From NCBI GenBank assembly GCA_001779235.1, contig MFJN01000009.1, positions 1-40,368 of the forward strand: DNA of 40,368 bases, in the 5' to 3' direction. Positions 362 through 39,700 of this stretch are shown piece after piece; within the stretch, counting starts at the first letter, position 1, and each line of letters begins with the position of its first letter. The stretch comes from Candidatus Gottesmanbacteria bacterium RIFCSPHIGHO2_02_FULL_40_13 (GTDB lineage: Bacteria; Patescibacteriota; Microgenomatia; 2-02-FULL-39-11). The notes under the pieces were generated by a model. That model saw only the letters and a list, made by a program, of their open reading frames with translations, made no database searches and was not told the DNA's origin. A program made the position numbers and the translations under genes.

Positions 362-3300
362 ATGAGTAGATTTGAAGTAGCTGCATCTATTGGCTCATTA
401 TGGCATAATGAACAACCTACAGTGATTCTGTTGCTTCGGCAAGTCATAAGCGAGCAGTTAGTACTTTCCGAGCCAGTTCATGATCTATTATCACATTCTC
501 TACATGTTCGTAACTTAGCCAACGCGGTATCTATCAGGATAAATGAAAGATTTCCTCATATGGTAGACTCTGATTTAGTGGCCTCATCTGCTGTAATTCA
601 TGATTGGGGAAAATTAAAACATCAACCCACGATCAATAGACCTTATTCACATTACATCAGAACGCAACTAGATACTGCTTTGGCAGGCTTTCCAGCTATA
701 GGATCAATAGCCGGACGTCATAATTTTGGGGCGCTTCTTCGCGATGACCCGCTTCTTTTGGAACAAATGATTATAATTTATGCCGATATTCGGGCACGAA
801 GTGAGACAGTTGAAGGCGTTGTCTGCCGTCGCTATAAAACTTTAGAAAATTCATTACCCGAAATAGCTGAAAAATTGCGTGAAAGCGGTAAATATACTAA
901 AGATGATATTTTAAAAGGAAATAAAAGACTGGTTGAATTTGAAGCCATACTACGTAAGAACAATATAAATATCGATGATTTATCGGAAATACCGGACGGG
1001 CTTACTCCTAATACTAGACAATATTATAATCCATCACCTGCTTCATCCTCAGTACCTATTTATAAGACAAGCAAAGAAGAGTCCGATCAATTTCTGGCAG
1101 ACTTGCACCAATTAGACATTCTTACCTTATCAGATGAAGTATGTGCAAAATCTAATTTTATAAGATCAACCATTAAGGGAATTATTTCTGGGGATGAAAA
1201 AGCTTCAACGAGACTGGCTTTAATCGATCCATCACGTATTCCACAGTGGATAAATTTATTACGCATAAAAAACCAAAATAGAATATTAAAAGAGACAACA
1301 GAGCATCCAGATCAAAATTTTTCACTAATTTCAAATCCTAAGGTATTACATGCCGCACGCGTGAATCATATACGAGTGCTAAGAGAGGTATTTTTCCTTT
1401 CAGAAGAACCTGATTTCAGAAAAAGAATATTATCGGCAATAAGCTCATTATTCATGGGAAATGAGATTCAGGAAGATGATGTAGCATTTCACGCTGCTAA
1501 AGCCTATGGAGAAATGGTAGGAGATATGAAAGATGAGGATCGATCTTCATATTTAGAACAATTGTGGGAAGAATATAACCTAGACAAGGAATGTTCTTAT
1601 GCTCCAACAGCTCTTGAGCAATTGGCAAAACGACGTGAAGACCACGCAAAAGAATTATATAGAAGGATGTCTACCGATTTGCTTCATACTATGGGTTCGC
1701 GGGCAGTTAGTCTTTTTTCCCAAACGTTATTAAAAATAGGCGATGTGGATTTAGTAAAAGAGGTCGCCTCAAGAAGTCGGGGAGATGATGTATTAACAAA
1801 TGCCCGAGAATCAATCCGGTATGCCCAGTTACTAATTCCTCTTTTGCATGCCTCAGATATTAGGATACGAGTTGAGGCTATATCCGGTCTGGTTAACTTA
1901 CATCAGAGAACATCAAATTTATCTTTAAAACTATATATAGAAGGTTTAATTGATTTAAATCGTGTTCACAGTGTAGAACATCATAGAGAGGTTTTGGCAG
2001 CTTTAAAAGTATGTGAAGACCCTTTGGAAAAAATTGCTTTATGTCAGGTGATTGGAAAAATTTCATACGGAGAACACTCTGAATTATTACAGTCTGCGGC
2101 CGATACTTTGCTAAAAATATTAGATGAAGATATGGATAACGACGTAAAATTACAAGCTTTAATTGCGCTGGGAAGAGATGGACTTACTAGATATTTAAGC
2201 GTGGAGCAGGCATCTAAGGTTTTGGACAGCTTATGGAGGATATTCTATTTTAATCAGCAAGCCCGGAAAGTGATGCCGTATTTTATTGCAGGAATATACG
2301 CCAGTAGAAAAGATTTACCTCACATGGGTAAAGATTTGAGTAATCTAATGGAAATTGTCAGTAATGAAAATCATCCGGATAGGCAATTTCAATACGAGGC
2401 TGCAAGAGTATTTATAGGTTTGGTTGGAGCCATAGATGATGATAACGATGAAAGAATAAGATTTGCTCAGCAGGGAATACTGCAAACTCAAAATATTTCC
2501 CCGCAATTGTTTGAATTAGTATTTCAAAAGTACGTAACCAGAGTATCCAGAACTTCCCGTTTAACCACAGAGCAAAAGGCTAAAAGAATAGCAGGGAGTA
2601 TGGTCAGAAAATATATGTCTTCAGTTCAGGGTGATATGACTTCAAGATATATAACATATGATAATTTACATTCCAGCATGGTGCTGCCGGCAGGAAAATC
2701 GACCGATGTGGTGGTATTTTCTGGTACTTTTGACCCAGTACATAATGGTTCAGAGGTGGCGGCGGAAGTAGTCTCTCAGTTGGTCGGAGATGTATTTATG
2801 CAGGCAGACGATGGTAATCCAAGCAAAAATCCAAAAGCAAGAGAAATAAGAAATCAAATAATTACCAAAGCCATCGCTGACCAGCCGGGGGTATATTTGT
2901 GGAACGAGCCGCACCCTTTTGTTTACCGCAAACCTGAAGAATATGCTGAACTAAGAAGAGTTTTTAAAGATAGGACAGTATGGTTGCAGGTCGGCGAGGA
3001 TAGATTGAGACAAAGTTCATTCTACGAGGATTTCAAGAATTATGTATATCTAGTACCACATGTTGTGACAATTAGGGAAGCAAATTTTCCATCCTGTCAG
3101 TTAGAATTTAGAGACGGCATAATTGTCGGGGAGGTAGATGACAATTTACTTACGTATTTACAGACAAAACCTGATTTTATGGCAAAAATAGCCCGTTTTC
3201 ATAGAATAAAAGTAATTGGAGTACCCACAAACTTCAGTTCCACTGAAATTAAAAACCAAATACAAAGAGGAGTCTTGCGGAATGTGGATCCGTCAACAAG

Positions 3301-3613
3301 GAGGGTTATTGCACAAGTTTATGCCGATGAATCGATAGCCGATCATATCGAGCAAAGAAGGGTGATAACAGACGCCGGGGAGTTTGACAGACGACGCCAG
3401 GATGATGAATTATGGTTAATGCCTGAGGAACAAGTAGATAATTTACTCACTCAATTACCATCGATTGCAGATATACCGCCAAGAGATAAACTTTTTGTAT
3501 ATTATGATCCCATAACCGGGTATGGTTATTTATGTTATTTAAAATCCTTATCTCATAAGACTGAGAGGATAATTCAAGTTTTTAATATTAACTCAACAAG
3601 TTTGGAAGGATAA
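362..3613 (+). CDS. Large multidomain protein: N-terminal HD phosphohydrolase domain (YqeK-like), central HEAT/PBS-lyase-like helical repeats, C-terminal NadD-like (cytidylyltransferase-fold) nucleotidyltransferase domain, plus a ~100-aa tail
   Basis: Uninterrupted 1083-aa ORF. HD signature: HSLHV (aa ~45), VIHDWGK (aa ~78-84), AGRHNFG, IIIYADIRA. HEAT-like units: EDDVAFHAAKAYGEMVG, ASDIRIRVEAISGLV, DNDVKLQALIALGRDG, HPDRQFQYEAARVFIGL. NadD-like region: VVVFSGTFDPVHNGS (nt 2708-2752), NPSKNPKA, WLQVGEDRL, and NFSSTEIKNQIQRG, which matches the ISSTxIR motif. Confidence 0.75.
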   Translation: MSRFEVAASIGSLWHNEQPTVILLLRQVISEQLVLSEPVHDLLSHSLHVRNLANAVSIRINERFPHMVDSDLVASSAVIHDWGKLKHQPTINRPYSHYIRTQLDTALAGFPAIGSIAGRHNFGALLRDDPLLLEQMIIIYADIRARSETVEGVVCRRYKTLENSLPEIAEKLRESGKYTKDDILKGNKRLVEFEAILRKNNINIDDLSEIPDGLTPNTRQYYNPSPASSSVPIYKTSKEESDQFLADLHQLDILTLSDEVCAKSNFIRSTIKGIISGDEKASTRLALIDPSRIPQWINLLRIKNQNRILKETTEHPDQNFSLISNPKVLHAARVNHIRVLREVFFLSEEPDFRKRILSAISSLFMGNEIQEDDVAFHAAKAYGEMVGDMKDEDRSSYLEQLWEEYNLDKECSYAPTALEQLAKRREDHAKELYRRMSTDLLHTMGSRAVSLFSQTLLKIGDVDLVKEVASRSRGDDVLTNARESIRYAQLLIPLLHASDIRIRVEAISGLVNLHQRTSNLSLKLYIEGLIDLNRVHSVEHHREVLAALKVCEDPLEKIALCQVIGKISYGEHSELLQSAADTLLKILDEDMDNDVKLQALIALGRDGLTRYLSVEQASKVLDSLWRIFYFNQQARKVMPYFIAGIYASRKDLPHMGKDLSNLMEIVSNENHPDRQFQYEAARVFIGLVGAIDDDNDERIRFAQQGILQTQNISPQLFELVFQKYVTRVSRTSRLTTEQKAKRIAGSMVRKYMSSVQGDMTSRYITYDNLHSSMVLPAGKSTDVVVFSGTFDPVHNGSEVAAEVVSQLVGDVFMQADDGNPSKNPKAREIRNQIITKAIADQPGVYLWNEPHPFVYRKPEEYAELRRVFKDRTVWLQVGEDRLRQSSFYEDFKNYVYLVPHVVTIREANFPSCQLEFRDGIIVGEVDDNLLTYLQTKPDFMAKIARFHRIKVIGVPTNFSSTEIKNQIQRGVLRNVDPSTRRVIAQVYADESIADHIEQRRVITDAGEFDRRRQDDELWLMPEEQVDNLLTQLPSIADIPPRDKLFVYYDPITGYGYLCYLKSLSHKTERIIQVFNINSTSLEG

Positions 3614-3619
3614 AAATTT

Positions 3620-4717
3620 ATGTCCAATTTAATTGAACAAGGATGGCCTAAACCAATACTAGACAAAAATAAATTAGACCGAAAAGCTCGAATTGCAATT
3701 CGTGGCGCATTCGGGCAACTGGGAACCAGACTAATTGGAGCCTTGGGAAAACAACTGGATCTTGAAGCTACGATTGGACTGGTAAGAAGAGATCCTACAG
3801 TGGAACTGAGAGGATTTGCCGCAGTCGAAGGACATCCGGATTTACAATTATTTACCACCGATGAAAGCGAATTGGGAGCATTAAAAGATTTAGGTTTCAA
3901 TGTTGGTTTATGGACAAATGATCACTTTAGGGATGTTGATTTAATGATTGACACCACACCGCCCGGAAAAGGAGCTGATTTTGCCTATCGGTCAAGAGAA
4001 AATAATAAACCAATTATCGTGCAGTCAGGCGAAAGAGGTTTTGGCAGATTAGTTTCACCTCCTCTCATAGCCGGAGGCGAGGGGATAATTTTTGAGGCAG
4101 GAGACTGCAACGTCAATGCAATTAGTGTGGTTGGAAGTGCATTAAGTGGGATTTTAACAAGAGTCGGGGTAAATATATTAATGCAGCACGGAAGATTTTT
4201 TCACGGAAGGCTCAGAGATGAACCGGTAATATCAACATATTTTGTTTCCGGAAAACCTACCCAAGAACATTTACAACACTTGTTTCCTATTTTAGATCTT
4301 ACCGTAGGAAACATAAGCCAAGTTCCTTCTCTAAGGTATTATACTCATAACTTTGTCATGGAAACTGCGGATCTTGTAGATGCGGGTGAAGTGAGAGATC
4401 TTTTAGACAAACATCCAAGAATCAGATGTCTTCCGCATGCAACTTCAACTTACGACGTGCGGGAGTATGATAATATACTCCGTGCAGCCGGAGGCGCGAG
4501 ATTACCGCCAATTGTACCTATAATAGTTCAGGGAGGCACACCTTTTCAAAAATCTAAAACTGTTGAAATGATAGTTACAATTGATTCCAGAAGAATTACA
4601 GTTTTACCAAACATAGATGCAGCGCGAACTCTTTTATGGGGAGTAGAACCTATAGAATCAATGAGAATAACTGATGAAACTATGCACTTTGTTAAACCAC
4701 CCGATGAAATTAAGTAA
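3620..4717 (+). CDS. Rossmann-fold dehydrogenase resembling archaeal type-II glyceraldehyde-3-phosphate dehydrogenase (divergent)
   Basis: Colinear motif matches to archaeal GAPDH: IAIRGAFGQLG (dinucleotide loop), DLMIDTTPPGKGADF, PIIVQSGERG, catalytic-Cys region AGDCNVNAIS (archaeal SCNTT), VPSLRYYTHNFVMET, DKHPRIRCLP, VLPNIDAARTLL. GGAAGGA lies 9 nt upstream of the ATG, which is 7 nt after the upstream stop. Confidence 0.6.
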   Translation: MSNLIEQGWPKPILDKNKLDRKARIAIRGAFGQLGTRLIGALGKQLDLEATIGLVRRDPTVELRGFAAVEGHPDLQLFTTDESELGALKDLGFNVGLWTNDHFRDVDLMIDTTPPGKGADFAYRSRENNKPIIVQSGERGFGRLVSPPLIAGGEGIIFEAGDCNVNAISVVGSALSGILTRVGVNILMQHGRFFHGRLRDEPVISTYFVSGKPTQEHLQHLFPILDLTVGNISQVPSLRYYTHNFVMETADLVDAGEVRDLLDKHPRIRCLPHATSTYDVREYDNILRAAGGARLPPIVPIIVQGGTPFQKSKTVEMIVTIDSRRITVLPNIDAARTLLWGVEPIESMRITDETMHFVKPPDEIK

Positions 4718-6038: not shown

Positions 6039-6686
6039 TTAAAACCCAACAGAATTTAGCTCGAGCATATTGTTGTTGGGTTCGGAATTAATAAATATGA
6101 ATAGCTTATGGTGATTTTCAAATTTTTTTATTTTTTCTTTATGAGCAAAAATATAGCTTAACTCATCAATTCCCTTAAGCAAACACATTTTTCTAAATGG
6201 ATCGATAGAAAAGATAAAGCATTTTTTTTGGGCTACATATACCTTTTGTCTGTCTAAATTAATCCTGATCTTTGTATCATGATTCCGTTCAATGATTTTT
6301 AAAAGTATTTCTAACTCATCGGATTTTATAATTACTGGTAATAATCCATTCTTAAGGGCATTATTATAGAAAATATCACCAAAAGAAGAAGAAATTATCA
6401 CTTTAAAACCAAAATCTTGCAAAGCCCACACTGCGTGTTCACGGCTTGATCCGCAACCGAAATTATTTCCGGCAATTAATATTTGAACTAGAGTTTGTTG
6501 AGAATAATTAAAGATACTATTTTTCTTTTTTTTGTCTTTATTATTTCGCCAATTATAAAAAAGATATTTACCCAATCCGTTTTTTTTAGTGGTTTTTAAA
6601 AATTGAGCCGGAATTATCTGATCAGTATCGACATTTTCAGATTTTATCAGTAAACAGGTTGAATTAAGCCGTGTAAATTTATTCAT
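6039..6686 (-). CDS. leuD: 3-isopropylmalate dehydratase small subunit
   Basis: DTDQIIPAQFLK and NFGCGSSREHAVWAL motifs. Start moved to ATG 6686 (MNKFTRL), which has GGAAGGA 8 nt upstream, instead of the track start at 6719. Confidence 0.9.
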   Translation of the reverse strand: MNKFTRLNSTCLLIKSENVDTDQIIPAQFLKTTKKNGLGKYLFYNWRNNKDKKKKNSIFNYSQQTLVQILIAGNNFGCGSSREHAVWALQDFGFKVIISSSFGDIFYNNALKNGLLPVIIKSDELEILLKIIERNHDTKIRINLDRQKVYVAQKKCFIFSIDPFRKMCLLKGIDELSYIFAHKEKIKKFENHHKLFIFINSEPNNNMLELNSVGF

Positions 6687-6741
6687 ATTAGATATCCTTC
6701 CAAAATTCAGCTCCAGCATGATTTTAGAAGGAGTTTAATAA

Positions 6742-8142
6742 TTATAAAAACTTTCTGACATCGGCAATTTTTCCCTCAATTGCACAAGCTGCAGCCGTGA
6801 TGGGACTGGCAAGAAATGTTCGTGCACCGGGTCCCTGTCTGCCTTCATAGTTTCGATTGCTTGTTGAGATGCAGTATTTTCCAGACGGAATTTTGTCTTC
6901 ATTCATGGCAATGCATGCCGAACAACCAGACCAACGCCACTGAAATCCGGCTTCAATAAAAATTTTGTTCAGACCTTCTTTTTCTGCCTGAAATTTCACC
7001 TGTCTTGATCCGGGGACAACTATTGCCACAACATTTCCGGATACCTTTTTTCCTTTCACAATTGCGGCGGCTTGACGCAGATCTGAGATTCTGGCATTAG
7101 TACAGCTGCCGATAAAAATATAATCTACGGAAAACCCTTCCAGAGTCCTGCCGGGTTTCAAATTCATATAAGCTAACGCTTTTTCCCGTGACATTTTTTC
7201 CTCCGGAGTTTGTGCCGTTTCAGGAGAAGGAATTTTTTCCGAAATTTTAATACCGGTCGACGGATCAGTACCCCAAGTAACTAATGGTTCAATATTATTT
7301 CCGTTAATTATTACTGATTTATCAAACTGAGCATTTTCGTCGGTTTTCAAAGTCTGCCAATAATTAATTGCTTCGTTCCACTTATTTCCCTTTGGAGTAA
7401 ATTGTCTGCCTTTCAAATATGCAAAAGTTGTCCGGTCAGGGGCGACCATTCCACATCTGGCTCCCGCTTCAATACTCATATTACAAATTGTCATTCTTTC
7501 TTCCATATTCATTTTTCTTATTAACGATCCGGAATATTCTATGGCAAATCCGGTGCCACCCTTGGTCCCTATTTTTGTTAAGACTGTTAGAATTACGTCT
7601 TTGGTGGTTACCCCTTTTCCTAATTTTCCATCTATATTAATTTCCATAGTTTTCATGGGATTTTGCAGTAAGCATTGGGAAGCAAGTACATGTTCAATTT
7701 CAGTTGTCCCGATACCAAAAGCAAGACAGCCAAATGCACCATGAGTTGAAGTATGGGAGTCACCGCAGACGATGGTCATACCCGGTTGTGTAATACCGAG
7801 TTCCGGTCCGATTACATGAACGATTCCCTGATAGGAACTATCCAAACCGTAAAGTCTAATCCCAAAATCACGGCAATTTTTTACCAGAGTATCGATTTGC
7901 ATACCCGATAATTTATCTCTAATTTCATTTTGATTAATTGTAGAAACATTGTGATCGCAAGCGGCAAAAGTTCTCTCAGGACAGCGAACCTTTAATTTTT
8001 TCTTCCGCAAATTATAAAAAGCCTGAGGCGATGTCACTTCATGAACATAATGGACATCTAAATATAATAAGGAAGGAGAATTTTTTCTCCGGAAGACCAT
8101 ATGGTTACCCCAAATTTTTTCAAAAAGTGTTTTGGCTTTCAT
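6742..8142 (-). CDS. leuC: 3-isopropylmalate dehydratase large subunit
   Basis: Aconitase-family motifs: [45 protein letters not shown]. Confidence 0.95.
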
Positions 8143-17508: not shown

Positions 17509-19242
17509 ATGAATAAGTGGAAAATACTAGATGAAAGCCGTAGTACATCAAATAATTCCGGAGATGATGAAATAATTTCCATAATACTGAAAAACCGCGG
17601 CATTAAAACAAAGAAACAGATAGAGGAATTTCTCCATCCCGATCTTTCCCGCATAAACCGCAAAATATTGGGAATAAATAATAACGGCCTATTAAAAGCT
17701 CTGGAAAGAATAGAAACTGCATTGAGAAATTCGGAATCGATTGTGGTTTATACTGATTATGACGTGGACGGGTTAAGCAGCGGCGCGCTGCTTTGGGAAT
17801 GCCTATTTTCTTTTGGAGCGAAGGTTATGCCGTATGTGCCAAATAGGTTTGAAGAAGGTTATGGACTGTCGGAAAAAGGAATACTGGAGGTTAAGAAAAA
17901 ATATAAAACCTCTTTAATCATTACTGTTGACCACGGAATTTCCGCAGGCTCTAAGATCGCTTTTGCCAAAAAACAAGGAATCGATGTAATTGTTATAGAC
18001 CACCATGTAAAACCGGATAAAACTCCGGATCTTGATACTCTGGTACATACAACCATGGTTTGTGCTACTGCCTTAGTCTGGTATTTTTGTGAGGAGTTGA
18101 CGAACTACCTGAAAAAATCAACGGATCTGCAAAAAGGTAAATTTTCCCATAAAGAAAATTTGGATTTGGTGGCTTTGGCTACAGTTTGTGATTTGATTCC
18201 ACTGATTGGAGTAAACAGAATTTTCGTCAAGTTGGGACTTGTACAACTCAGGAAAAGTACGCGGGTTGGTTTAAACACATTAATAAAACATGCCGGAATT
18301 AATAAAGAAGATATTGACGCCTATGATTTAGGCCATATCATCGGACCAAGAATAAACGCCATCGGACGGTTGACTCATGCTATTGATGCACTGCGCCTTC
18401 TCTGCACCAAAGACAAAATCAGGGCTCTGGCATTATCAGAAAAATTATACACTTTGAATAAAAAAAGACAGGTAATGACAGAAGAGTCAGTTATCATAGC
18501 GAAGGATATGGCCGATGTTAAAAGCGGATTATTATTCATCAGTCATGAGAGTTTTCAATCGGGGATTATCGGGCTTATTGCCGGAAGATTGACCCAGGAT
18601 TACAATCTTCCTTCGATTGTGATAGCCAAAGGCGAAAAAATTTCCAAAGCCTCAGCCCGATCTGTAAAGAGCATCGATATTATCGCCATTCTCAGAAATT
18701 TTGAAGATATCTTGATTGATGTTGGAGGTCATCCTCAAGCAGCAGGTTTTACTGTTGAAACTTCTAAAATAGGGCTTCTTGAGTCAAGACTTGCCGCCTT
18801 TTTTCAAAATGAAAACCTGTTCAGACGAACGGATAAAAATATCCTGATTGATATGACTTTGAACCTGTCTGATATAACAGAATCTTTATATGCAAAAATG
18901 TTGCAGTTACAGCCCTTTGGAGTTGCTAATTCCGAACCTGTTTTTTTAAGTAAAAATATTACAATTGCAGGTTTTACCTTGGTCGGCCGTGAGAGAAACC
19001 ACTTAAAAATGAAGTTGAAAATCAGCGAAGAAAAAAATGATTTAATTGAAGCTATCGGATTTAAACTGGGAGAAATTGCGGGTACGTTTAAATCTGACTG
19101 TAAAATCGATACTGTTTATAGTTTGGATGAAAATAAATGGAATTCTAAAACAAGCTTGCAATTGCACCTTAAAGATGTTAGGATCTCTGAGGTTTTTTAT
19201 GAGAAAAATACCCGCTACCATGGCAACCCAGCATCCGGATAA
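17509..19242 (+). CDS. recJ: Single-stranded-DNA-specific exonuclease RecJ
   Basis: DHH motifs YTDYDVDGLSS, ITVDHGIS, VIDHH. DHHA1 motif GGHPQAAGFT. Confidence 0.9.
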   Translation: MNKWKILDESRSTSNNSGDDEIISIILKNRGIKTKKQIEEFLHPDLSRINRKILGINNNGLLKALERIETALRNSESIVVYTDYDVDGLSSGALLWECLFSFGAKVMPYVPNRFEEGYGLSEKGILEVKKKYKTSLIITVDHGISAGSKIAFAKKQGIDVIVIDHHVKPDKTPDLDTLVHTTMVCATALVWYFCEELTNYLKKSTDLQKGKFSHKENLDLVALATVCDLIPLIGVNRIFVKLGLVQLRKSTRVGLNTLIKHAGINKEDIDAYDLGHIIGPRINAIGRLTHAIDALRLLCTKDKIRALALSEKLYTLNKKRQVMTEESVIIAKDMADVKSGLLFISHESFQSGIIGLIAGRLTQDYNLPSIVIAKGEKISKASARSVKSIDIIAILRNFEDILIDVGGHPQAAGFTVETSKIGLLESRLAAFFQNENLFRRTDKNILIDMTLNLSDITESLYAKMLQLQPFGVANSEPVFLSKNITIAGFTLVGRERNHLKMKLKISEEKNDLIEAIGFKLGEIAGTFKSDCKIDTVYSLDENKWNSKTSLQLHLKDVRISEVFYEKNTRYHGNPASG

Positions 19243-20701
19243 TGCGGGCAAGCCTTATTGGCACGACAAGGCTTTCATCTCAACACTCGCGGAATTGAAG
19301 GAGTGTTATTTATGTTTTTCGGATCTCGCGATGGATGAGTATAACTGGGACTGGGAAGGAAAATTCGTTGATGAGGCGGTGGTCGACAGACTTCTCAGCA
19401 AATATTACACCTATTTCAAAAAAAATCCTTTGGGTAAAGAAAAATTTCTTACTTTCCGCATTCCCAATCCGCGGGTGGAAAAACAATTCAGGCTGGCCAG
19501 AGCCTTCATGGTAATGATTACCAGTAGTCAATTGGCAGAGAGTTTGGGTTTTAACCATCCTCCAATTTTTGAAACAATACTCCCCTTGACGGAAACAGCT
19601 GAAGAAATAATTGATATTCAGGAAGCGTTCAGGGAGATTGTCGATATTGATCACAGATTACTTAAGATGAATGATTCCATCAGATCCATCGAAATTATTC
19701 CCCTTTTTGAGCAAGTGAATGTGATTATCAGATCTTCAGAAATTTTACGGGAGTATTTCAAACTTCATAAAGCCAGATTCGGTAAATATCCCGCCTATCT
19801 CAGACCTTACTGTGCCCGGAGCGATCCGGCTCTCAATTCATCACTAGTACCCACCATGCTGGCATTAAAAATAGCCTTATCACAATTTAGGAACTTAGAG
19901 CAAGAATCAGGCATAAGGCTTTATCCTATGGTTGGCACAGGGACTCTGCCTTTCAGGGGATCGGTAACCCCTACTAACATTCAAGACGTGCTGAATGAAT
20001 ACAGGGGTGTGAAAACCATGATTTTACAAAGTGCATTCAGATATGATTTTCCCAAAAAGAAAGTAAAGACAGCCATAAACATCTTAAAACAAAGACTGCC
20101 GGAAGGAATTGCGGCTCAAATTGACACATGCACAAAAAAGAAACTTCTTAAAATAATTCCTTATTTTGAGATTCCTTACCGGGAAACCGTGGAAAAATTA
20201 GCTCCGCTGATAAATTCACTGAGCTTGTACGTCGCAAAAAGAAGGGAAAGAGTTCTACATATCGGGCTTTTCGGTTACTCGCGGGGTGTAGGAAAAGTGC
20301 ATTTACCACGGGCTATTTCTTTCACGGCCTCACTTTATTCTCTGGGAATCCCTCCTGAACTTATTGCCACAGGAAGAGGTTTAAAAAAAGCTAAGGGTAT
20401 GGGACTCACAGAAGAGATATTCCGATATTATGTCAACTTTAAAAAAGATATCATCAAGGCAGGTTATTTTTTAAATAAAAAAAATCTGGCTCGTCTTGCC
20501 TCGGATATACCCGCTTTTAAGCAGGTTATTGAGGACGTTTTTGAGATAGAAAAGCTATTAAAGGTGACACTTGGTCCCCAAGACGATATTCAAAAAGAAC
20601 ATTGCAAATTATCTGAGACTATTTATAATAGGTTAAAAAGTAAAGCCAATCCGACCAATCTTATTTCTCTGGCAGGCAGTCTAAGAAAAAGTTTAGGTTA
20701 A
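19199..20701 (+). CDS. ppcA: Archaeal-type phosphoenolpyruvate carboxylase (PepcA family)
   Basis: MRKIPATMATQHPDNA matches the characteristic archaeal-type PEPC N-terminus. About 500 aa. Start set at ATG 19199 (GAGG 6-7 nt upstream) rather than the track start 19046, which lies inside recJ. Confidence 0.8.
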   Translation: MRKIPATMATQHPDNAGKPYWHDKAFISTLAELKECYLCFSDLAMDEYNWDWEGKFVDEAVVDRLLSKYYTYFKKNPLGKEKFLTFRIPNPRVEKQFRLARAFMVMITSSQLAESLGFNHPPIFETILPLTETAEEIIDIQEAFREIVDIDHRLLKMNDSIRSIEIIPLFEQVNVIIRSSEILREYFKLHKARFGKYPAYLRPYCARSDPALNSSLVPTMLALKIALSQFRNLEQESGIRLYPMVGTGTLPFRGSVTPTNIQDVLNEYRGVKTMILQSAFRYDFPKKKVKTAINILKQRLPEGIAAQIDTCTKKKLLKIIPYFEIPYRETVEKLAPLINSLSLYVAKRRERVLHIGLFGYSRGVGKVHLPRAISFTASLYSLGIPPELIATGRGLKKAKGMGLTEEIFRYYVNFKKDIIKAGYFLNKKNLARLASDIPAFKQVIEDVFEIEKLLKVTLGPQDDIQKEHCKLSETIYNRLKSKANPTNLISLAGSLRKSLG

Positions 20702-32056: not shown

Positions 32057-32500
32057 TTAGAATGCCTTTTGGTTACGCTTTTTTTCCTCCCACCGATCCT
32101 TGCGCCACTTTCTCCAATCACGTCCTTTAGGAGGAAAGACATCGTTGATAAAATCATCAATCTTCTGAACGAACTCATTAAGTTTTTCATTCCTCATGAT
32201 GTTTCCCGCAACCATCCGATAACCTCCTTTTCCGCTTCTCATGCTTCTACTAACTTTACTCACAGTTTCCAAACCTACTTTTAGAGTTTTAGAAATAGTC
32301 CTTTGGTCATATTTTTTTGCCAGAAGAAAAGCTATAGATATTCTTTTTGCCAACATGGTTTTTTCAGTCGGTGATAATAAATCTTCTAACAAACTCGTAA
32401 CTTCACCTCTAGACCGTACCATTCCGATACTTTCAAGAAAAACTTCATATATTCTTTCTTCAATTTCTTTTCGTAATGGAAATTTGGAGATCTGCGTCAT
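32057..32500 (-). CDS. TrpR-like / YerC-YecD family DNA-binding protein
   Basis: LLSPTEKTMLAKRISIAFLLAKKYDQRTISKTLKVGLETVSKVSRSM matches the YerC/TrpR helix-turn-helix core. Confidence 0.8.
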   Translation of the reverse strand: MTQISKFPLRKEIEERIYEVFLESIGMVRSRGEVTSLLEDLLSPTEKTMLAKRISIAFLLAKKYDQRTISKTLKVGLETVSKVSRSMRSGKGGYRMVAGNIMRNEKLNEFVQKIDDFINDVFPPKGRDWRKWRKDRWEEKKRNQKAF

Positions 32501-32512
32501 ACTTATGTTTCG

Positions 32513-32534
32513 ATGTTCTAGAACATGATAACAT
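32513..32534. promoter_or_regulatory. Putative operator overlapping the TrpR/YerC-like gene promoter
   Basis: ATGTTCTAGAACAT palindrome (32513-32526) within the 22-nt repeat. On the minus strand, TTGTTT-17-TATCAT places the -10 box directly against the palindrome. Confidence 0.5.
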
Positions 32535-32620
32535 GAATATTATTTACAAACAATAATCCGCATAGAATCATCAGAAATGTTACCGTTAAGGATTTGGCAA
32601 AGAAACTGTTATTATGAGAA

Positions 32621-32699
32621 CCCCGACTTTATGTCGGTAGAGACTGTAATATCGATTAAATCGGGATTCCCGCGCTCACTTTCGTTTGTTCGGAATGAC
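32621..32699. repeat. Partial copy of the GC-rich palindromic repeat family (3' of the hydrolase gene)
   Basis: CCGAC-TTTAT-GTCGG hairpin, ATCGATTAAATCGGGA, and GATTCCCGCGCTCACTTTCGTTTGTTCGGAATGAC, which aligns with the second arm of the copA copy. Confidence 0.45.
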
Positions 32700-32786
32700 A
32701 GAAGGTGATAAACTCGTGATCTAATAACTATAGAGGAATAGATGATTGCGTTTAAAGATTGCACCAATAGCCTACAGAGTTTCTGA

Positions 32787-33659
32787 CTAGAGATCACTTA
32801 AAAAATCCAGGACACGTTTACTGAATTCATCCGGTTTTTCCTTGTGTATATCATGAGAAGTATTTGCCAACCAGATAATCTTTGGTTCATTAGCCAGTGA
32901 ATATAAATACTCTGCGTCTTTATAATCGACATCTTGATCATTTTTAGCGGCAAAAATCAGAACATGTGTTTTTATTTTAGAAATTAATTTTTCCGGATCG
33001 AAATCAGAATAGTGACTGCCAAGCTCGATCGCAGCGGCTATTTTGATTATTGGCAAAAACAACGGAACATATAAATGTTCTCTTGCGATCTGGAAAGAGA
33101 AAAGCTTGTTAAACGAGGCATAGGGGACTGAGGCAATGACAAAATCTCCCCGTTGAGTTTTTCCGGCGGTAATAATGGCAGTTGCCGCACCCATAGATAT
33201 TCCGAAATATCCTATTTTTTTATCTTTATTTTCCGGAAGTGTTTTCAAAAAATTATATGACGCTTCTACATCTTTCCATTCTCTGGTACCAAGATGCACT
33301 CTGGACCCCGTACTTTCACCGGTAGATCTTAAGTCCATTAGTAAAACAGAATATCCGTTTTTGGTTAAATAATTGGCATGAGGTAGCATGAGAGCTTTAC
33401 CGCCATTTTTATCGGTTAATCCGTGAATTAGTATAATTACCGCCTTGGAATTAATAACAGGTGTATACCATGCTGAAATAATTTCTCCGTCTGAAGTTTT
33501 GAAACTAACGCTTTTTTTATCAAGAGGATAATTATCTATTAATTTCTGATTTAAATTGGCGTGGATATAAATTGATTGTCTGAATTTCCACCAGGTATAC
33601 AAAAAGCAAAGCAATAATAAAATAATGAGTAATAAGAATAGAAAAAAAAGATACTTCAT
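32787..33659 (-). CDS. Alpha/beta-fold hydrolase with an N-terminal membrane anchor
   Basis: HG oxyanion motif (ILIHGL), nucleophile elbow GISMGA, distal D and H (SHDIH). Confidence 0.8.
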   Translation of the reverse strand: MKYLFFLFLLLIILLLLCFLYTWWKFRQSIYIHANLNQKLIDNYPLDKKSVSFKTSDGEIISAWYTPVINSKAVIILIHGLTDKNGGKALMLPHANYLTKNGYSVLLMDLRSTGESTGSRVHLGTREWKDVEASYNFLKTLPENKDKKIGYFGISMGAATAIITAGKTQRGDFVIASVPYASFNKLFSFQIAREHLYVPLFLPIIKIAAAIELGSHYSDFDPEKLISKIKTHVLIFAAKNDQDVDYKDAEYLYSLANEPKIIWLANTSHDIHKEKPDEFSKRVLDFLSDL

Positions 33660-33773
33660 TTTTAAGAACGATAATGAATAGTTTTATTGGGATAAACTCT
33701 TTTTATGTCAAACTGTTGCCAAACGCTAAGATATTTGGTACATGTGAAAATTATAACAAATAATAAGCTTGAA

Positions 33774-33802
33774 CAAAAAAATGCTCCCGGATGAGGGGAG
33801 CA
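33774..33802 (-). terminator. Intrinsic terminator at the end of the copper-cluster operon
   Basis: Minus strand: TGCTCCC-CTCATCC-GGGAGCA followed by TTTTTTTG. Lies 24 nt after the cupredoxin stop. Confidence 0.75.
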
Positions 33803-33825
33803 CTTTTAAAATTATTAGAGTTAAA

Positions 33826-34347
33826 TTATTCTACAATTAATGTGCCGACCATGCCCATTTGGCGGTGTTGTCCGATGGCACAGTAGTACTCGTATGATCC
33901 TTTTTTACCGGCTGTAAACTCTATTGAGGTAGTTTCACCGGTTTTGACGTCAGAGCTTTTTACTTTAAATTCATCCAGATATAAGTTATGGACTTTATCC
34001 ACAGATTTGAGTAAGATTTTGATCCGATCACCTTCTTTTACAGTAATCTTATCCGGCTTGAAATAAAAAGATCCGCCTTCCATCTCTATCGTTTTGATAT
34101 TTTCAGCTACTTTTGACGCTGTTTTATCGGTAGTGAGAGTATCTGTACCATTTTGAGTTGAAGGCTCAGTTATTTCTTCATTTGCAGTTCTTTCAATTAC
34201 AGCAGGTTCACCTGTCTTTTTATTTGCGCTCATGAAATAATAACCGCCTCCGATAACCACCAAAACTATCACTGCTCCCCAAATCATAGGATTAAAGCTT
34301 TTACTTTCTGGACTTACTTGTGTATCTGCCTTTTGTGTATCTGCCAT
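33826..34347 (-). CDS. Membrane-anchored cupredoxin (blue-copper-like) protein
   Basis: Start set at MADTQK (34347), preceded by AAGGAGGA. TM helix. C-terminal VHNLYLDEF...YEYYCAIGQHRQMGMVGTLIV gives the H...C-x4-H-x2-M ligand pattern. Confidence 0.75.
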   Translation of the reverse strand: MADTQKADTQVSPESKSFNPMIWGAVIVLVVIGGGYYFMSANKKTGEPAVIERTANEEITEPSTQNGTDTLTTDKTASKVAENIKTIEMEGGSFYFKPDKITVKEGDRIKILLKSVDKVHNLYLDEFKVKSSDVKTGETTSIEFTAGKKGSYEYYCAIGQHRQMGMVGTLIVE

Positions 34348-34375
34348 TTTTAAATCCTCCTTAAATTTTATTAAT

Positions 34376-35338
34376 TTATACTCCGCACCCTCCGCCTCCT
34401 TCAACTTTTGGAAGAAGCCCCTCCGACTGCAACTCTTTATTAATCGTTCGATATCCCTGTCCGCTGGAATAGTCAATTCCTAGCACAAGTTTCGGATCTA
34501 CCTTATCCCAGGAAATATTTTTCTTTTGTTTGAAATATGTTCCCAGCTCTGCATACGTTTGAGGAAACCAGTAGGTATTAAGCGCCAAGGCTTTTTTATA
34601 AATTTCTTCTTTAGACATTCCTTGTTTTACAGCGATTTCGATAAAGCCCAGCATGGCCGCTCCGTGATTGCAGTCCGGGAAATAGGTACTATTGCCGCAG
34701 CAGGGCCGATAGATATTCTGGGCAATCTCCGTCACGATTTTTTCCTCGTCGGCAGTTAAGGGCAAAATTGGATATTTATTGAAAAGATTTCCTCCAGTTT
34801 CCCGTCCCAGAGTCCATCCGCCGGTTGAGGCAAAATTACCGACCTCATTTTTATACTGTGTGCCCATCGGTCCCTCGCTTAGGACGTTAGTTTTATTAGC
34901 AATACCGAGCGGCCAAAGAAGATTTAAAATAAGATTGGCATTTTGCTGATTTACAATGATCGGCTCATCAGACGCACTATCAAATAACCCCTTTTCAACC
35001 TCCGTAAGTCCTCCCCGTCCCTCATACAGTTTGAAAAATTTATCTTTATCTATCGCCCCATATTGAACCATTTTTACTAGAACATCTCCGTACGACACCT
35101 TTAGATTTACATTATCCGGAAATACTGATTTGGTGATTTCTTCCTGAAGTTTAGCAGGATCAGGAGTAGGTGTTGGTTGTTTTTTCAAAAAAGGTAGTGT
35201 GTAAGATATGGTTTGTGATTTAACAATAAAAAGAGGGACGAGTTTCAGAATCAGTATTGCCAGAAGTAATCCGGTAGCCAGACCCAAAAAATAACTTTTC
35301 CTGGATTTGATGCTATTAATAGCCTTTTTTGTTTTCAT
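34376..35338 (-). CDS. Membrane-anchored Cys-rich hypothetical protein (RPCCGNSTYFPDCNHG motif, GGGGCGV C-terminus)
   Basis: 320-aa ORF. N-terminal TM. Clustered Cys/His. 4-nt overlap with the upstream DsbD-like gene. Confidence 0.6.
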   Translation of the reverse strand: MKTKKAINSIKSRKSYFLGLATGLLLAILILKLVPLFIVKSQTISYTLPFLKKQPTPTPDPAKLQEEITKSVFPDNVNLKVSYGDVLVKMVQYGAIDKDKFFKLYEGRGGLTEVEKGLFDSASDEPIIVNQQNANLILNLLWPLGIANKTNVLSEGPMGTQYKNEVGNFASTGGWTLGRETGGNLFNKYPILPLTADEEKIVTEIAQNIYRPCCGNSTYFPDCNHGAAMLGFIEIAVKQGMSKEEIYKKALALNTYWFPQTYAELGTYFKQKKNISWDKVDPKLVLGIDYSSGQGYRTINKELQSEGLLPKVEGGGGCGV

Positions 35339-36144
35339 TTTTTCGCTTCCTTTAACATAATTTTAAATAATATAATAATTCCCGCAAGTACCAAAATATC
35401 TAAAATTGGATTTTGCAGTTTTCCTGATACGTTAAAAATAAAATTCCTGAGCTCTCTGCCGTATTCCATATTTGCATCCATCTTGATTTTATCTGTTAAA
35501 GCCATATAAGCAATAATGACCGAAGATATCATAAAAGTTGCTGCTGCCAGTAATTTGAGCGGTTTTTCCACACGTTTTCTGACGTTGTAAAGATACTGAT
35601 TGGTAATTTTTTCATAAAACAAAGAAAGAAAGAACAGTGGAAATACTATACCAAGAACATATACCAGAGAAACGATAAGTGAGGTAAAGATTGTAGGAGA
35701 AAGCGATGAAAGTGTAATCGCGCCAAAAAGTACCGGAGCGCAGCATGAAGAGGTAATGCCTGAAAAAAGCCCCAGAAGATAGGTTGAACCAACAGTCGTT
35801 TTTGCAGGCATGGTGAAATGGGGGAGCGGCAGCATCAATTTAGCGTCAAAAAGAGTCATTAGCCCGAGTAAAAACATAAGCAGGGCTCCCAAAAGATAAG
35901 TTGTAGTATGAAACTGGTTAAAGAAAGAAACTATTATATTCATTCCAAGTGCAACGGGCACAAGAATTGATCCTAAACCAAGAGCGAAAACAAGCGTCAG
36001 AAAGACAATCCTCCTTCTTTCTTTAAAGATTGTCCCAAGGTATGAAGGAAAAAGAAAAGTGATGCAACAGGGAGCAAAAAGTGCAACCATTCCACCTAAA
36101 AAAGAGGCGGTTAGGGAAACACCAAAAAAAATATTAAAATTCAA
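35335..36144 (-). CDS. DsbD/CcdA-like transmembrane thiol-disulfide (or metal) transfer protein
   Basis: Six to eight TM helices, with paired Cys inside TM segments (FAPCCITFLFPSYLG and SSCCAPVLFGAI), as in the DsbD_2/CcdA families. Confidence 0.6.
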   Translation of the reverse strand: MNFNIFFGVSLTASFLGGMVALFAPCCITFLFPSYLGTIFKERRRIVFLTLVFALGLGSILVPVALGMNIIVSFFNQFHTTTYLLGALLMFLLGLMTLFDAKLMLPLPHFTMPAKTTVGSTYLLGLFSGITSSCCAPVLFGAITLSSLSPTIFTSLIVSLVYVLGIVFPLFFLSLFYEKITNQYLYNVRKRVEKPLKLLAAATFMISSVIIAYMALTDKIKMDANMEYGRELRNFIFNVSGKLQNPILDILVLAGIIILFKIMLKEAKK

Positions 36145-36145
36145 T

Positions 36146-36682
36146 TTATTCTACCTCCGCTTTCACGGTAAATGTCAACTTGGGATTTTCAGGATCGTTT
36201 GTTTGCATAAAAACATCCCTTGTGACCACACCCTTTACAGGCATGATAAATGGCCTGTAGATAACATTGAGAGTAGCTTTTTTCCCCGGATCAACCGTTC
36301 CTGTCCAACTGTTCTTGGAATGCATACCGAATTCCGCACTTTTATTCCCGTCAATAGTTATCTGTCCGAAAGTACAGTCGCAGGATGAGCTTACTTTAAA
36401 AAGAGAAAGTGGTTTGGTTCCTTTGTTTTCAATTGAAAACTCTGCTGATTTCTCATCTTTTACTTTCATATTACCTAAATCGGAAAAAGCGGATGAGATT
36501 GCAACTACAGGTTTTTCTTTGTCATTTACAGAGAAACTATTTATATTCGCTGCTGTCTGACTCTGCTTTCCTTCATTAATGGAAAAAAGGACAATTAAGA
36601 CAAGGATTACTAGCGTAAATCCACCAATTATTATAAAAATCAACTTATCGGTACCCATATTACTGACCCGGGAAAGTTTCAT
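36146..36682 (-). CDS. DUF1573-domain protein (membrane-anchored, Ig-like)
   Basis: N-terminal TM. FSIENKGTKPLSLFKVSSSCDCT matches the DUF1573 N.G...L.I..v..sC.Ct core. Confidence 0.75.
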   Translation of the reverse strand: MKLSRVSNMGTDKLIFIIIGGFTLVILVLIVLFSINEGKQSQTAANINSFSVNDKEKPVVAISSAFSDLGNMKVKDEKSAEFSIENKGTKPLSLFKVSSSCDCTFGQITIDGNKSAEFGMHSKNSWTGTVDPGKKATLNVIYRPFIMPVKGVVTRDVFMQTNDPENPKLTFTVKAEVE

Positions 36683-36793
36683 ATATTCTCTCCTCCTTGA
36701 AAGGATTATACCAAGCGGATTATTAAGATATTATGAAGACCTTGAGCTATCTCCAGCACTAGTCCCGACGTGACCTCGGGGCGGTACGAGATT

Positions 36794-39700
36794 TCATTTT
36801 CCTGCAGCCATCGAACTGCTTATTCTACCAAATTCTATAAAGAAAAAAGTGAAAAAAAGCATCATGACTATCGGAGCAATCATCGAAATATAATTCCTTC
36901 TTCCCGGACGAAAATACCGAAGAAGAAGAGAATTAGAAACGACTGAAATGGAAGAAAAAGCCATAGCCAGTCCTGCTAACTCCGGTTTAAGCACCAAACC
37001 GATCGATATGAATACTCTGGCGGCAATCGGAATACCTATTACATTATAAAAGAGTGCAAAAAACATATTTTGTTTGATTTTTCCCATCGTTTCCTTTGAC
37101 AAATCAAAAGCGGTCACCACATCTCTCAGGTCATTTTTCATAATCACAATTCCACCTGCTTCCATAGCGACATCTGTTCCCGATCCCATGGAAATTCCTA
37201 CATCAGCTTGAGCCAGAGCCGGCGCATCATTAATTCCGTCGCCAACCATAGCAACTTTCTTTCCGCTCTCCTGAATCTTTTTTACCTCATTTGCTTTATC
37301 CTCGGGTAATACTTCAGCAAGTACATGGTCAATTCCTACTTCGCGGGCTATAGCTTCAGCTGTTCTTCTGTTATCACCTGTTATCATATAGACTTCAATA
37401 CTTCGTTTCTTAAGACTCGCCACCGCTTCTTTTGAAGTTTCTTTAACTGTATCTGCAACTGCGATAAGTCCGATAATTTCTTGATTTAATCCTACCATCA
37501 TTACCGTCTTCCCTTGATTCTCAAGATTTTCAAGAATGAAATTAAGTGATTGTTTAATTGTTAAATCGTTTAATTGCATCAACCTTCGATTTCCGATTAA
37601 TACCGTTGCCGTCTCTTCTCCCACTGTCATTTCTCCCATAGCGCCTTGGCCGGCGATGGCAAGGAAATTCTGTACTTCAGAAAGCTGCAAATTATCTTGA
37701 TTTGCTTTATTTACTATTGCTTCAGCTAAGGGGTGTTCAGATGATTTTTCAAGAGATGCAGCAAGGGTTAGAATGTCATTCTGAGTGAAGCGAAGAATCC
37801 CGTTGGGGTCCTTCGACTCACTTCGTTCGCTCAGGACGACATGTGACGGAATTACATCCGTCACAGTCGGTTTTCCGTTTGTTAAAGTTCCTGTTTTATC
37901 AAAAACTACAGTATTTACTTTACAGGCAGACTCCAAAGGTTCTCCTCCTTTAATAAGTACACCGTGCTCGGCGCCTTTGCCTGTTCCAACCATAAGAGCG
38001 GTAGGTGTGGCCAACCCTAAAGCACATGGACAGGCGATAACAATTACCGATGTGAAGGCCATTAAAGCAAAAGCAAGAGGAGCCCCCAAAAAGAAATACC
38101 ACACAATGAATGTCAGGATGGCAATAGCGATCACCAGAGGCACGAACCAAGCTGAAATTCTATCTGCAAAGGCCTGAATAGGGGCTTTGGAGCCTTGAGC
38201 CTCTTCAATCAGTCTTATGATTTGAGCCAGAGTTGTTTCTGAGCCGATTCGTGTTGCCACAAACTCAAAGCTACCCATTTTATTCATGGTGGCGCCGGTA
38301 ACAAAATCTCCTGCATGTTTTTCTACAGGTATACTTTCTCCGGTAAGCATTGATTCATCTACACTAGAGGACCCTTTAACTATCTTTCCATCGATTGGGA
38401 TTTTCTCTCCCGGACGAACCAAAATAATATCACCGACTTTTACTTCATCAATTGAAATATCTTCAGTACTTCCATTTCTTACGACTCTGGCAGTTTTGGC
38501 CGCCAGACCCATCAATTTTTTTATGGCATCAGATGTCTTTCCTTTTGCCCGAAGCTCAAGCCATTTCCCTAAGATGACAAAAGTGATCAGAAACGCGGCA
38601 GTTTCAAAATATAACTCCGGTATTTTGGTGCCTGTAAGACCGGTAAGCGATCCTGTTCTTATATAATAATATGCGAAATTGATAAGTGAGTAAAAATAGG
38701 CTGTTGATGTACCAATGGCGATAAGACTGTCCATGTTGAAGGTCTTCATCCTAAGAGCTGACCACATACCCTTATAAAACCTTAAACCGATAATAAACTG
38801 TACGGGGGTAGATAATATCAGGGAAAATATACCAATATAAGGCGTGAGTAAGACTTTTCCGGGTATCCAGGCTATAAAATCAAATAGCATAAAATAGAAC
38901 ATAGGGAGAGAAAGAAGAAAACTATTCATGAAGGCCTCAAAAAGATTTTTTATTTCTTTCTCTCTTTTATTCCTCTCAAACTCGGGATCATTTTCTTTAA
39001 CGACTGAAGCCAGGTATCCTGCTTTTTTCACGGCAGTAATAAGATTATCAATACTGGTGCTTTTTTCATCGTAATAAACCAGAGCTTTTTCAGCAGCGAA
39101 ATTAACGTTAGCTTTTGATACTCCTGTCACTTTTTTGAGCGACCTTTCAATAATTGCGGCACATGACGAACAATGCATGCCCGATAAGGATAAATTTGCT
39201 CTTTGCAGACTGTTTATCTGGTTTGTATCAGTCTTTACTTCGGCAGCGGCATTATTGGTTTCCGCGGAAGTTGTCTTTTGAGTAAGATTTCTGTTATCGG
39301 TATGATTTGAGGTAAAATCTAATTTATCAAACAGTTTTACTGTATCAATAGAGGATAAAAACTCTTTCAGGAAGTTTTTAACACCCTTTTGTCCTTCCGG
39401 GACGGATACTTTAGTATTTTTTTTATTTTTTACGGTGCCGTCAAAAAAAGATTTACCTTCGGAATCTTTAGAAATCCTTCCTTCTGCGATAATTTCAGAC
39501 TCGACAGAAATTTTGAAGGGCTTATTTGATTTTATAATATTTTGTTGAAATAGAACTTCGTTTTCATGGATAGATTTTCCATTGCCGTTAGTGTCAATTT
39601 TTGCCTGATAACCTGCACGTTTAACCGCATCTATCAATTCATTATGCTGGATATTTTCTTTCTCAAGAGATAGTAATGCTTTTCCGCTTTTATGATCAAT

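Follow-up and report, generated by a model that had tools for sequence, protein, structure and literature searches.

A Gottesmanbacteria gene pair encoding an HD–solenoid–NadD-like protein and a GAPDH-like partner: a possible nucleotide-cofactor module

The stretch of DNA analyzed here (the window) comprises 40,368 nucleotides of contig MFJN01000009.1 from Candidatus Gottesmanbacteria bacterium RIFCSPHIGHO2_02_FULL_40_13. A gene near its start, at positions 362–3613, encodes a 1083-residue protein in which an HD phosphohydrolase domain, a long ARM/HEAT-like α-solenoid and a NadD-fold nucleotidyltransferase-like domain follow one another. A second gene, separated from the first by 6 nucleotides (3614–3619), encodes a divergent homologue of archaeal-type glyceraldehyde-3-phosphate dehydrogenase (GAPDH). 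The open reading frame (ORF) at 362–3613 is a real gene under purifying selection. The pair is conserved in four lineages, in which identity of the large protein falls to as low as 50%, and this is good evidence for a functional unit. We tentatively interpret the pair as a two-gene accessory operon in which a scaffolded enzyme and a dedicated dehydrogenase would jointly handle NAD-type dinucleotides, the chemistry being inferred. The features of the locus, all on the forward strand, are as follows.

324–351, forward: promoter-like block; −35 TTGTAA at 324–329, 16-nucleotide spacer, TG-extended −10 TATAAT at 346–351
362–3613, forward: coding sequence of the HD–solenoid–NadD-like protein, 1083 residues, ATG start
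362–1066, forward: N-terminal module, residues 1–235, with the HD phosphohydrolase core at about residues 40–205
494–496, 599–604, 650–652, 719–721 and 785–787, forward: candidate metal ligands His45, His80-Asp81, His97, His120 and Asp142, chosen by invariance
1067–2686, forward: ARM/HEAT-like α-solenoid, residues 236–775, from the AlphaFold2 (AF2) model and Foldseek
2687–3361, forward: NadD-fold nucleotidyltransferase-like domain, residues 776–1000, from profile and Foldseek matches
2723–2752, forward: first motif of the NadD-like domain, G788-TFDPVHNG-S797
3236–3253, forward: second motif of the NadD-like domain, S959-STEIK964
3362–3610, forward: C-terminal tail, residues 1001–1083, predicted helices and a three-stranded sheet
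3604–3610, forward: Shine-Dalgarno-like GGAAGGA within the last codons of the large gene, read from the sequence
3620–4717, forward: partner gene, 365-residue divergent archaeal-type (type II) GAPDH homologue (NF003251, PDB 1b7g)

A search of 5.8 billion protein clusters returned six clusters of 1083–1089 residues that align with one another from end to end, at 100, 82, 82, 44, 43 and 42% identity to the window protein. Two further members were reached through the neighboring gene; one is a full-length protein of 1081 residues with 50% identity (locus L040) and the other is partial, with 55% identity across its last 405 residues (locus L045). The assemblies that contain these members come from the independent sources NCBI, ENA, JGI and Logan. 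All homologues share the N-terminal sequence M-S-[RV]-[FY], which supports the assigned start codon. The ratio of nonsynonymous to synonymous substitution rates (dN/dS) against an 82% identical relative is 0.168 overall, with values of 0.147 for the HD domain, 0.191 for the solenoid, 0.130 for the NadD-like domain and 0.158 for the tail. The original prediction, made from the letters of the window and a list of its ORFs, had described a three-part protein consisting of an HD domain, a helical array and a NadD-like domain. This layout is common to the relatives from the Candidate Phyla Radiation (CPR) at 42–82% identity. The domain order, the reverse of that in known NadD-YqeK fusions, was borne out; the spacer, expected to span 500–600 residues, is a helical array of 540, and the unassigned tail has 83. 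Direct domain searches were less decisive, with all Pfam and NCBIfam scores of the window protein below the curated cut-offs (HEAT_2 E 1.4e-4, HD 0.026, CTP_transf_like 0.052, NadD models about 3e-4), but the assignments were confirmed by stronger evidence: conserved residues for the HD domain, profile and Foldseek matches for the NadD-like domain, an AF2 model with Foldseek matches for the solenoid, and profile-profile homology to a Firmicutes family.

The partner is predicted to be an NAD(P)-binding dehydrogenase that depends on a catalytic cysteine and is of the archaeal GAPDH type. Its residues 25–359 align with residues 4–336 of PDB entry 1b7g (E 1.4e-9), and its match to NF003251 has an E value of 8.9e-19, although the score of 67.7 bits falls short of the cut-off of 185. 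Two features are invariant among the partner sequences, namely the Rossmann motif RGAFGQLG and the catalytic-type Cys163, found in GDCNVNAI aligned with SCNTT. Only four partner clusters occur among 5.8 billion proteins (100, 86, 60 and 59% identity), which makes the partner as rare as the large protein. The partner lies directly 3′ of the large-family gene in the window and at loci L001, L040–L044 and L045; the two genes overlap by 11 nucleotides in L040 and are separated by 2 nucleotides in L045. Whether the downstream dehydrogenase is conserved was a check proposed with the original prediction; it is conserved in the closer half of the family, in four lineages, and not in the clade at 43–44% identity.

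Assignment of residues 776–1000 to the NadD fold rests on both profile and structural comparisons. The family profile retrieves E. coli-type NadD from the PDB (E 3.5e-4), with GTFDPVH.G aligned, NP-SK opposite PP-HR and AIADQP opposite AIADKP. A separate AF2 model of residues 776–1083, with a mean predicted local distance difference test (pLDDT) score of only 69.6, retrieves NadD structures at Foldseek ranks 1–48 without exception (E 2e-6 to 2e-4, TM score 0.5–0.56 on the target). The sequence scores are far from the curated cut-offs of the NadD models (TIGR00482, 19.7 against 112.45 bits; NF000840, 20.1 against 150) and are also below that of PF01467 (14.2 against 21). Relative to E. coli NadD, Thr11, Asp13, His16 and His19 correspond to Thr789, Asp791, His794 and Ser797, while His45, Arg46 and Asp109 correspond to Ser821, Lys822 and Asp880, and ISSTxxR corresponds to FSSTEIK. 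The domain appears to keep the nucleotide-binding motifs GTFDP-H, GxD and SSTxxK, and His794, Thr789, Asp791, Asp880, SSTxxK and Lys822 are invariant in the CPR family. However, none of the eight CPR members has the second histidine of the (T/H)xGH motif, which is replaced by Ser, Thr or Gly (HxG[S/T/G]; HNGS in the window protein), and the position of the pyridine-stacking His45 is occupied by Ser, His, Asn or Leu across the family. In E. coli NadD the H19A variant retains 0.62% activity and His45, Arg46 and Asp109 are needed; the roles of the two histidines vary from enzyme to enzyme (PMC1249556). The substitutions at both histidine positions are consistent with the original suggestion that the protein is not a plain nicotinic acid mononucleotide (NaMN) adenylyltransferase. 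The NadD-like domain has the lowest dN/dS of any region and, as the most constrained part of the protein, appears to be functional and in a stable selected state rather than in decay. The AF2 model places an extra β-hairpin at about residues 912–922. The tail that follows contains a conserved YYDPxTGxGYL motif and is specific to the CPR family.

In the N-terminal module, His45, His80-Asp81, His97, His120 and Asp142 are invariant in six CPR and 15 Firmicutes sequences. Glu134 and Arg144 are likewise invariant in the CPR proteins and the 15 Firmicutes relatives, and Lys84 is nearly so. The six conserved ligands predict a two-metal hydrolytic center. The Pfam HD model (PF01966) scores 15.2 bits for the window protein and 21.4 bits for the Firmicutes relative P0010, against a gathering threshold of 22. 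When 20 HD-domain sequences were scanned with NCBIfam, the HD part of the DVU_1551 model and TIGR00295 each matched 18 and HDIG matched 16, with best per-member E values of 3.8e-7 for the DVU_1551 HD part and 4.9e-6 for HDIG; the YqeK model, TIGR00488, matched none of the 20 at E ≤ 0.1. A profile search of the PDB with this domain yielded the oxetanocin-like HD protein 1xx7 (E 0.0015), HD-GYP-type proteins and YfbR, and no YqeK chain was among the matches at E ≤ 10. The label YqeK-like given to the domain earlier is therefore not supported, as the two-metal ligand pattern is all that the two have in common. That ordered pattern is also found in other two-metal HD families and is not diagnostic of YqeK. 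The ligand order H, HD, H, H, D is the same as that of the YqeK two-metal center, which is formed by His21, His50 and Asp127 and by His83, His109 and Asp51 (PMC13627108).

The helical array anticipated between the two terminal domains is seen in the AF2 model as about 30 helices across residues 238–771, with pLDDT values of 80–90. A Foldseek search of the PDB with the whole model retrieves karyopherins, importin-α, PP2A-A and other ARM/HEAT proteins, with E values from 3e-5 and a probability of 1.0. The original prediction had named at least four PBS-lyase/HEAT-type repeats. At the sequence level the Pfam HEAT_2 model matches a single stretch, residues 545–607, below its cut-off (22.5 against 27.7 bits, E 1.4e-4), and PDB entry 4l7m is matched weakly by the family profile (E 0.036). 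The SARM1 ARM domain was also among the structural matches (TM score on the query 0.11) and was considered as a sign of nicotinamide mononucleotide (NMN) or NAD sensing, but it was taken as generic ARM similarity.

The CPR proteins have longer homologues in another phylum. When 1.84 billion representatives were searched exhaustively with a profile, 224 matches were obtained, and more than 100 clusters of Firmicutes (Clostridia/Eubacteriales) proteins of approximately 1550–1650 residues match both the HD and the nucleotidyltransferase parts, which are spaced by about 735 residues as in the CPR proteins. They carry database names such as 'nicotinic acid mononucleotide adenylyltransferase' (OQB25398.1, Firmicutes bacterium) and 'hypothetical protein' (MDD3920635.1, Eubacteriales). 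Alignment of the CPR family with 14 Firmicutes proteins by hhalign gave a probability of 99.95 and an E value of 1.6e-38 over 851 aligned columns. The match is collinear through HD domain, solenoid and nucleotidyltransferase (query residues 22–984 against template 157–1102), includes the corresponding solenoid regions, and ends at residue 984. This collinear homology indicates that the three-part architecture is old and common to two phyla. The Firmicutes proteins reach E values of 1.1e-9 for CTP_transf_like and about 1e-12 for NadD models over the full NadD length, and their motifs are canonical (GTFDPF[ST]x[GS]H[KR] and ISSTxIR). Comparison of these motifs marks the CPR proteins as a short branch whose catalytic histidine appears to have moved, with HxGS in place of SxGH. 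No curated NCBIfam model covers the Firmicutes family, the C-terminal 506 residues of P0010 match no PDB sequence, and literature searches yielded no published function for the family. Likewise, literature searches for the three-part architecture returned no paper, in agreement with the original statement that this is not a described protein, although homologous Firmicutes proteins were already present in the sequence databases. Reduced relatives also occur: P0007 (889 residues) has the HD domain, the solenoid and a degenerate nucleotidyltransferase remnant that has lost its N-terminal motif, and P0009 (512 residues) is a solenoid alone.

Several relatives have genes of NAD metabolism or redox chemistry as neighbors. 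At the Firmicutes loci L035, L037 and L039, the gene for the ~1600-residue relative forms an apparent operon with those for a following Rossmann protein of the lactate/malate dehydrogenase (LDH/MDH) type (335–414 residues) and an FMN_red-family protein (350–374 residues). In L037 and L038, a nicotinate phosphoribosyltransferase (NAPRTase) gene and a 168-residue ORF are located directly upstream of the Firmicutes member. The solenoid-only 512-residue relative (L029 1–9936, also L030 and L031) is near a nadB-like gene, nadA and nadC, and beside it in L029 is a 797-residue protein that has a PP-loop, GFSGDLDSAF, and matches NAD_synthase weakly (E 0.022). The same locus also encodes a 333-residue protein with a HIT-like motif, PPHMHLV, and a 796-residue methyltransferase-like protein.

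The large gene probably has its own promoter, of the leaderless type. The promoter-like block ends 10 nucleotides before the ATG, which would leave the mRNA with little or no leader. It was the top-scoring site in a promoter scan (10/12 plus TG) that found 18 sites overall, against 17.4 in shuffled sequences. The TTGTAA-16 nt-TGnTATAAT arrangement is kept in the 82% identical relative at L001, despite unrelated sequence farther upstream, which supports the claim of a separate promoter. The block is not conserved beyond that relative and is not found in the 50% identical relative at L040. As stated in the original prediction, the gene lies between ilvE and the leu genes. The last 58 codons of ilvE, encoding the 3′ end of a branched-chain aminotransferase, occupy positions 3–176 (E 7e-12 to aminotransferases of this type in the PDB), and leuB, leuD, leuC and leuA follow downstream on the minus strand. 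The leuD gene (6039–6719) has a C-terminal extension of about 95 residues past its Aconitase_C match (residues 11–131 of 226) and lies in the lowest-GC stretch of the examined region (0.286 at 6251–6750).

The location differs in relatives. In L001 (GCA_964365795.1, contig CAYIRL010000010.1, 4090–8928), a cassette on the opposite strand, consisting of a 135-residue membrane-like ORF, the large gene and the GAPDH-like gene, is positioned between rplJ-rplL and rplA-rplK and splits the rplKAJL cluster, which is normally contiguous. The family member of L009 lies a few kilobases from rplA and near toxin-antitoxin genes. PIN/PhdYeFM toxin-antitoxin genes adjoin a family member at L009 (1033–1783), L040 (1624–2306) and L045 (2631–3313). 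These placements suggest that the large gene and its partner are located in variable, accessory genome regions. The family is also rare. Close relatives are absent from 185,579 species representative genomes, in a scan with two exact peptide patterns that also missed the Firmicutes family and so excludes close relatives only. Among 241 million JGI metagenome records only 2 loci were found, both from lineages already known.

In the interpretation favored here, the NadD-like domain would bind a dinucleotide of the pyridine/adenine type, or a nucleotide related to it, and would perhaps also slowly form or exchange this ligand. A phosphoanhydride or phosphodiester linkage, either in the ligand itself or in an aberrant analogue, would be cleaved by the HD domain. 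The solenoid, which is taken to be rigid, would keep the HD and NadD-like sites together and dock the partner dehydrogenase, and the handling of the nucleotide cofactor would thereby be coupled to the partner. The make-and-edit logic would parallel that of NadD-YqeK, for which a proofreading relationship is experimentally supported (PMC9426524). The NAPRTase, nadB-like, nadA and nadC genes near relatives are in keeping with an NAD theme. A broader version, to which we assign a low probability, would make the CPR and Firmicutes proteins an unrecognized, phylum-spanning class of giant scaffolded enzymes that use one solenoid to build and edit a non-canonical pyridine or adenine dinucleotide, or to repair a damaged one, for the neighboring dehydrogenase, the CPR branch having swapped its histidine (HxGS for SxGH) and acquired new chemistry.

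A number of points weigh against the dinucleotide-handling interpretation. With Ser, Thr or Gly at the His19 position, the NadD-like domain may have no transferase activity, and since the residue at the His45 position varies, its ligand may be something other than a pyridine nucleotide. Neither model nor structure searches place the HD domain in the YqeK family, and its AF2 model is poor, with pLDDT values of 27–60 over residues 1–50 and 81–120. The NAD-gene neighborhoods are few (two loci) and could be coincidental. The dehydrogenase partners of the CPR and Firmicutes proteins are not homologous. Members of the 43–44% clade (P0004 and P0005) have no dehydrogenase partner, and instead a conserved convergent pair of genes for 407- and 518-residue proteins follows the large gene (L002 11508–14280; L008 3817–6593; L032 1–2975). 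Finally, the substrate, the direction of the chemistry and the docking of the partner on the solenoid are all inferred, the docking entirely so.

The proteins of the convergent pair have no Pfam, NCBIfam or PDB sequence match. The 407-residue protein was considered as a hidden GAPDH-like partner and rejected (hhalign probability 0.2%). Similarly, the LDH-like protein of the Firmicutes loci was considered as a homologue of the CPR partner and rejected, as there is no BLAST similarity. The C-terminal half of the 518-residue protein is found again just upstream of P0007, where it is fused to a HAD phosphatase. Read by eye, the motif SYKGLGG / GHKGLGAP of the 518-residue family resembles a pyridoxal phosphate-lysine site.

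A possible, if rather unlikely, alternative to the operon interpretation is a sensor-regulated hydrolase, in which a catalytically dead NadD-like domain would sense NAD, nicotinic acid adenine dinucleotide (NaAD) or ATP and control the HD domain through the solenoid, leaving the HD domain as the sole enzyme. All eight CPR members have lost the second (T/H)xGH histidine, and this loss, considered with the 0.62% activity of E. coli H19A (PMC1249556), fits the model. P0007 has no N-terminal nucleotidyltransferase motif and P0009 consists of the solenoid only, and the strong purifying selection is compatible with a binding role. Nonetheless, the invariance of His794, Thr789, Asp791, Asp880 and SSTxxK seems to exceed what binding would require. 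Moreover, the roles of the histidines differ among enzymes (PMC1249556), and the Firmicutes relatives have retained the canonical motif.

It is improbable that the protein serves as the housekeeping NadD, that is, as the NaMN/NMN adenylyltransferase of a reduced-genome organism with the HD domain proofreading as in the mycoplasma NadD-YqeK. NadD is the best match by both sequence and fold, the proofreading of NadD-YqeK provides a precedent (PMC9426524), and a canonical nadD gene is absent from the 40-kb window. However, the extreme rarity of the family, which is missing even from a genome whose GltX is 77% identical to that of the window, counts against this reading, as do the differing gene locations in close relatives and the toxin-antitoxin modules that adjoin the gene at three loci. 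The equivalents of both His19 and His45 are also missing, and the NadD scores are about 20 bits against cut-offs of 112–315.

We consider it equally doubtful that the protein carries out reversible protein nucleotidylation, with the solenoid binding a target such as the GAPDH-like partner, the NadD-like domain adenylylating it and the HD domain removing the modification. Long ARM/HEAT solenoids classically serve as surfaces for binding proteins, and the partner gene is tightly linked. Also in favor, a nucleotidyltransferase and an HD domain in one chain are typical of pairs that add and remove a group, such as GlnD and SpoT/RelA. To our knowledge, however, transferases with the HIGH motif (NadD/PPAT type) act on small-molecule phosphates or carboxylates and not on proteins, and the catalytic histidine is missing.

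The genomic context brings to mind an accessory conflict or defense module that manipulates NAD or nucleotide pools. The patchy distribution, the variable position, the adjacent PIN/PhdYeFM genes (L009, L040, L045) and the insertion of the L001 cassette inside the rplKAJL cluster are in line with such a role, but we give it very little weight. Neither the large protein nor the partner matches any model of PADLOC-DB 2.0 at E ≤ 1, no relatives are found on viral contigs, and effector domains such as nuclease, TIR or SIR2 are lacking. In addition, the Firmicutes relatives occur in metabolic contexts. An assembly chimera or spurious ORF, about which the original prediction had cautioned, can be dismissed because the full-length protein with the same architecture is found in independent assemblies from four sources; dN/dS is 0.17, there is no break in GC content around the gene, and the domains are arranged collinearly with those of a family from another phylum.

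Other observations in the window concern its remaining genes. An archaeal-type phosphoenolpyruvate (PEP) carboxylase (PEPcase_2, E 6e-131) is encoded at 19046–20701, after recJ (17509–19242). With the listed TTG start it overlaps recJ by about 200 nucleotides and is matched by Pfam only from residue 55 onward, such that the true start is probably farther downstream. This is the second archaeal-type enzyme of central metabolism in the window, besides the GAPDH homologue. At the far end of the window (32057–39805) the minus strand carries a copper/metal cluster. Its 1003-residue P-type ATPase contains two HMA domains, and the cluster also includes a DUF1573/Ig-like protein, a cupredoxin-domain protein and two unassigned ORFs; a Trp-repressor-like gene is located at 32057–32500. 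A search of both strands of the 40-kb window with Rfam gave nothing at gathering score, and no tRNA, riboswitch or T-box, including in the regions upstream of the leu genes and of two aminoacyl-tRNA synthetase genes. The GltX protein of the window shares 65–66% identity with those of Ca. Gottesmanbacteria metagenome-assembled genomes (MAGs) and up to 77% with MAG records labeled 'uncultured Gammaproteobacteria'. The GltX proteins of the latter (L010 CAYIFB010000004.1 and others) are closest to Gottesmanbacteria and other Patescibacteria, and the labels look wrong. The GltX comparison places the window in a CPR/Patescibacteria genome of the Microgenomates.

NadD is widely found paired with an HD hydrolase. 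The logic of this pairing, namely the proofreading of NAD synthesis and the turnover of diadenosine tetraphosphate (Ap4A), has only recently been resolved for the small YqeK proteins. The locus described here appears to recombine the same two chemistries, with the order reversed, another HD subfamily, a solenoid in between and a dehydrogenase partner after them. The more than 100 Firmicutes clusters labeled NadD or hypothetical are apparently unstudied and offer a testable entry into nucleotide-cofactor metabolism. The family also calls for caution with the automatic annotation 'NaMN adenylyltransferase' where the key catalytic histidine is absent. Cofactor metabolism in the CPR is poorly understood, and the pair draws attention to an accessory module that shifts between genomic sites.

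Among known systems, the mycoplasma NadD-YqeK fusions (NF005519/PRK07152, ~360 residues) and the Firmicutes nadD-yqeK gene pair likewise combine a NadD fold and a two-metal HD domain in one unit. YqeK also hydrolyzes Ap4A (PMC13627108). In contrast to NadD-YqeK, the window protein has the HD domain first, a 540-residue solenoid between the domains and an 83-residue tail, and is three times longer; it scores 20 bits with NF005519 against a cut-off of 315, over model positions 3–198 only, which correspond to the NadD half. With bacterial NadD (TIGR00482; PDB 1k4k, 1kaq, 2h29) it shares the fold, GxFDPxH, the NPSK/PPHR loop, AIADxP, GxD and SST, but the domain is embedded in 1083 residues, His19 is replaced by Ser, Thr or Gly, and Lys is found for Arg at both basic positions. 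The partner shares with archaeal type II GAPDH (NF003251, TIGR01546; PDB 1b7g, 1cf2) a full-length alignment, the Rossmann motif and the cysteine, whereas its four clusters all adjoin the large-protein family. The Firmicutes family has the same HD ligands, the same domain order and a Rossmann-type dehydrogenase-like gene downstream. The Firmicutes proteins have, in addition, an N-terminal extension of ~140 residues and ~500 more C-terminal residues that are absent from the CPR proteins; their C-terminal part contains a motif that by eye appears phosphoribosyltransferase-like, VILVDDLLHKGYR, whereas the window protein ends 83 residues past the nucleotidyltransferase domain.

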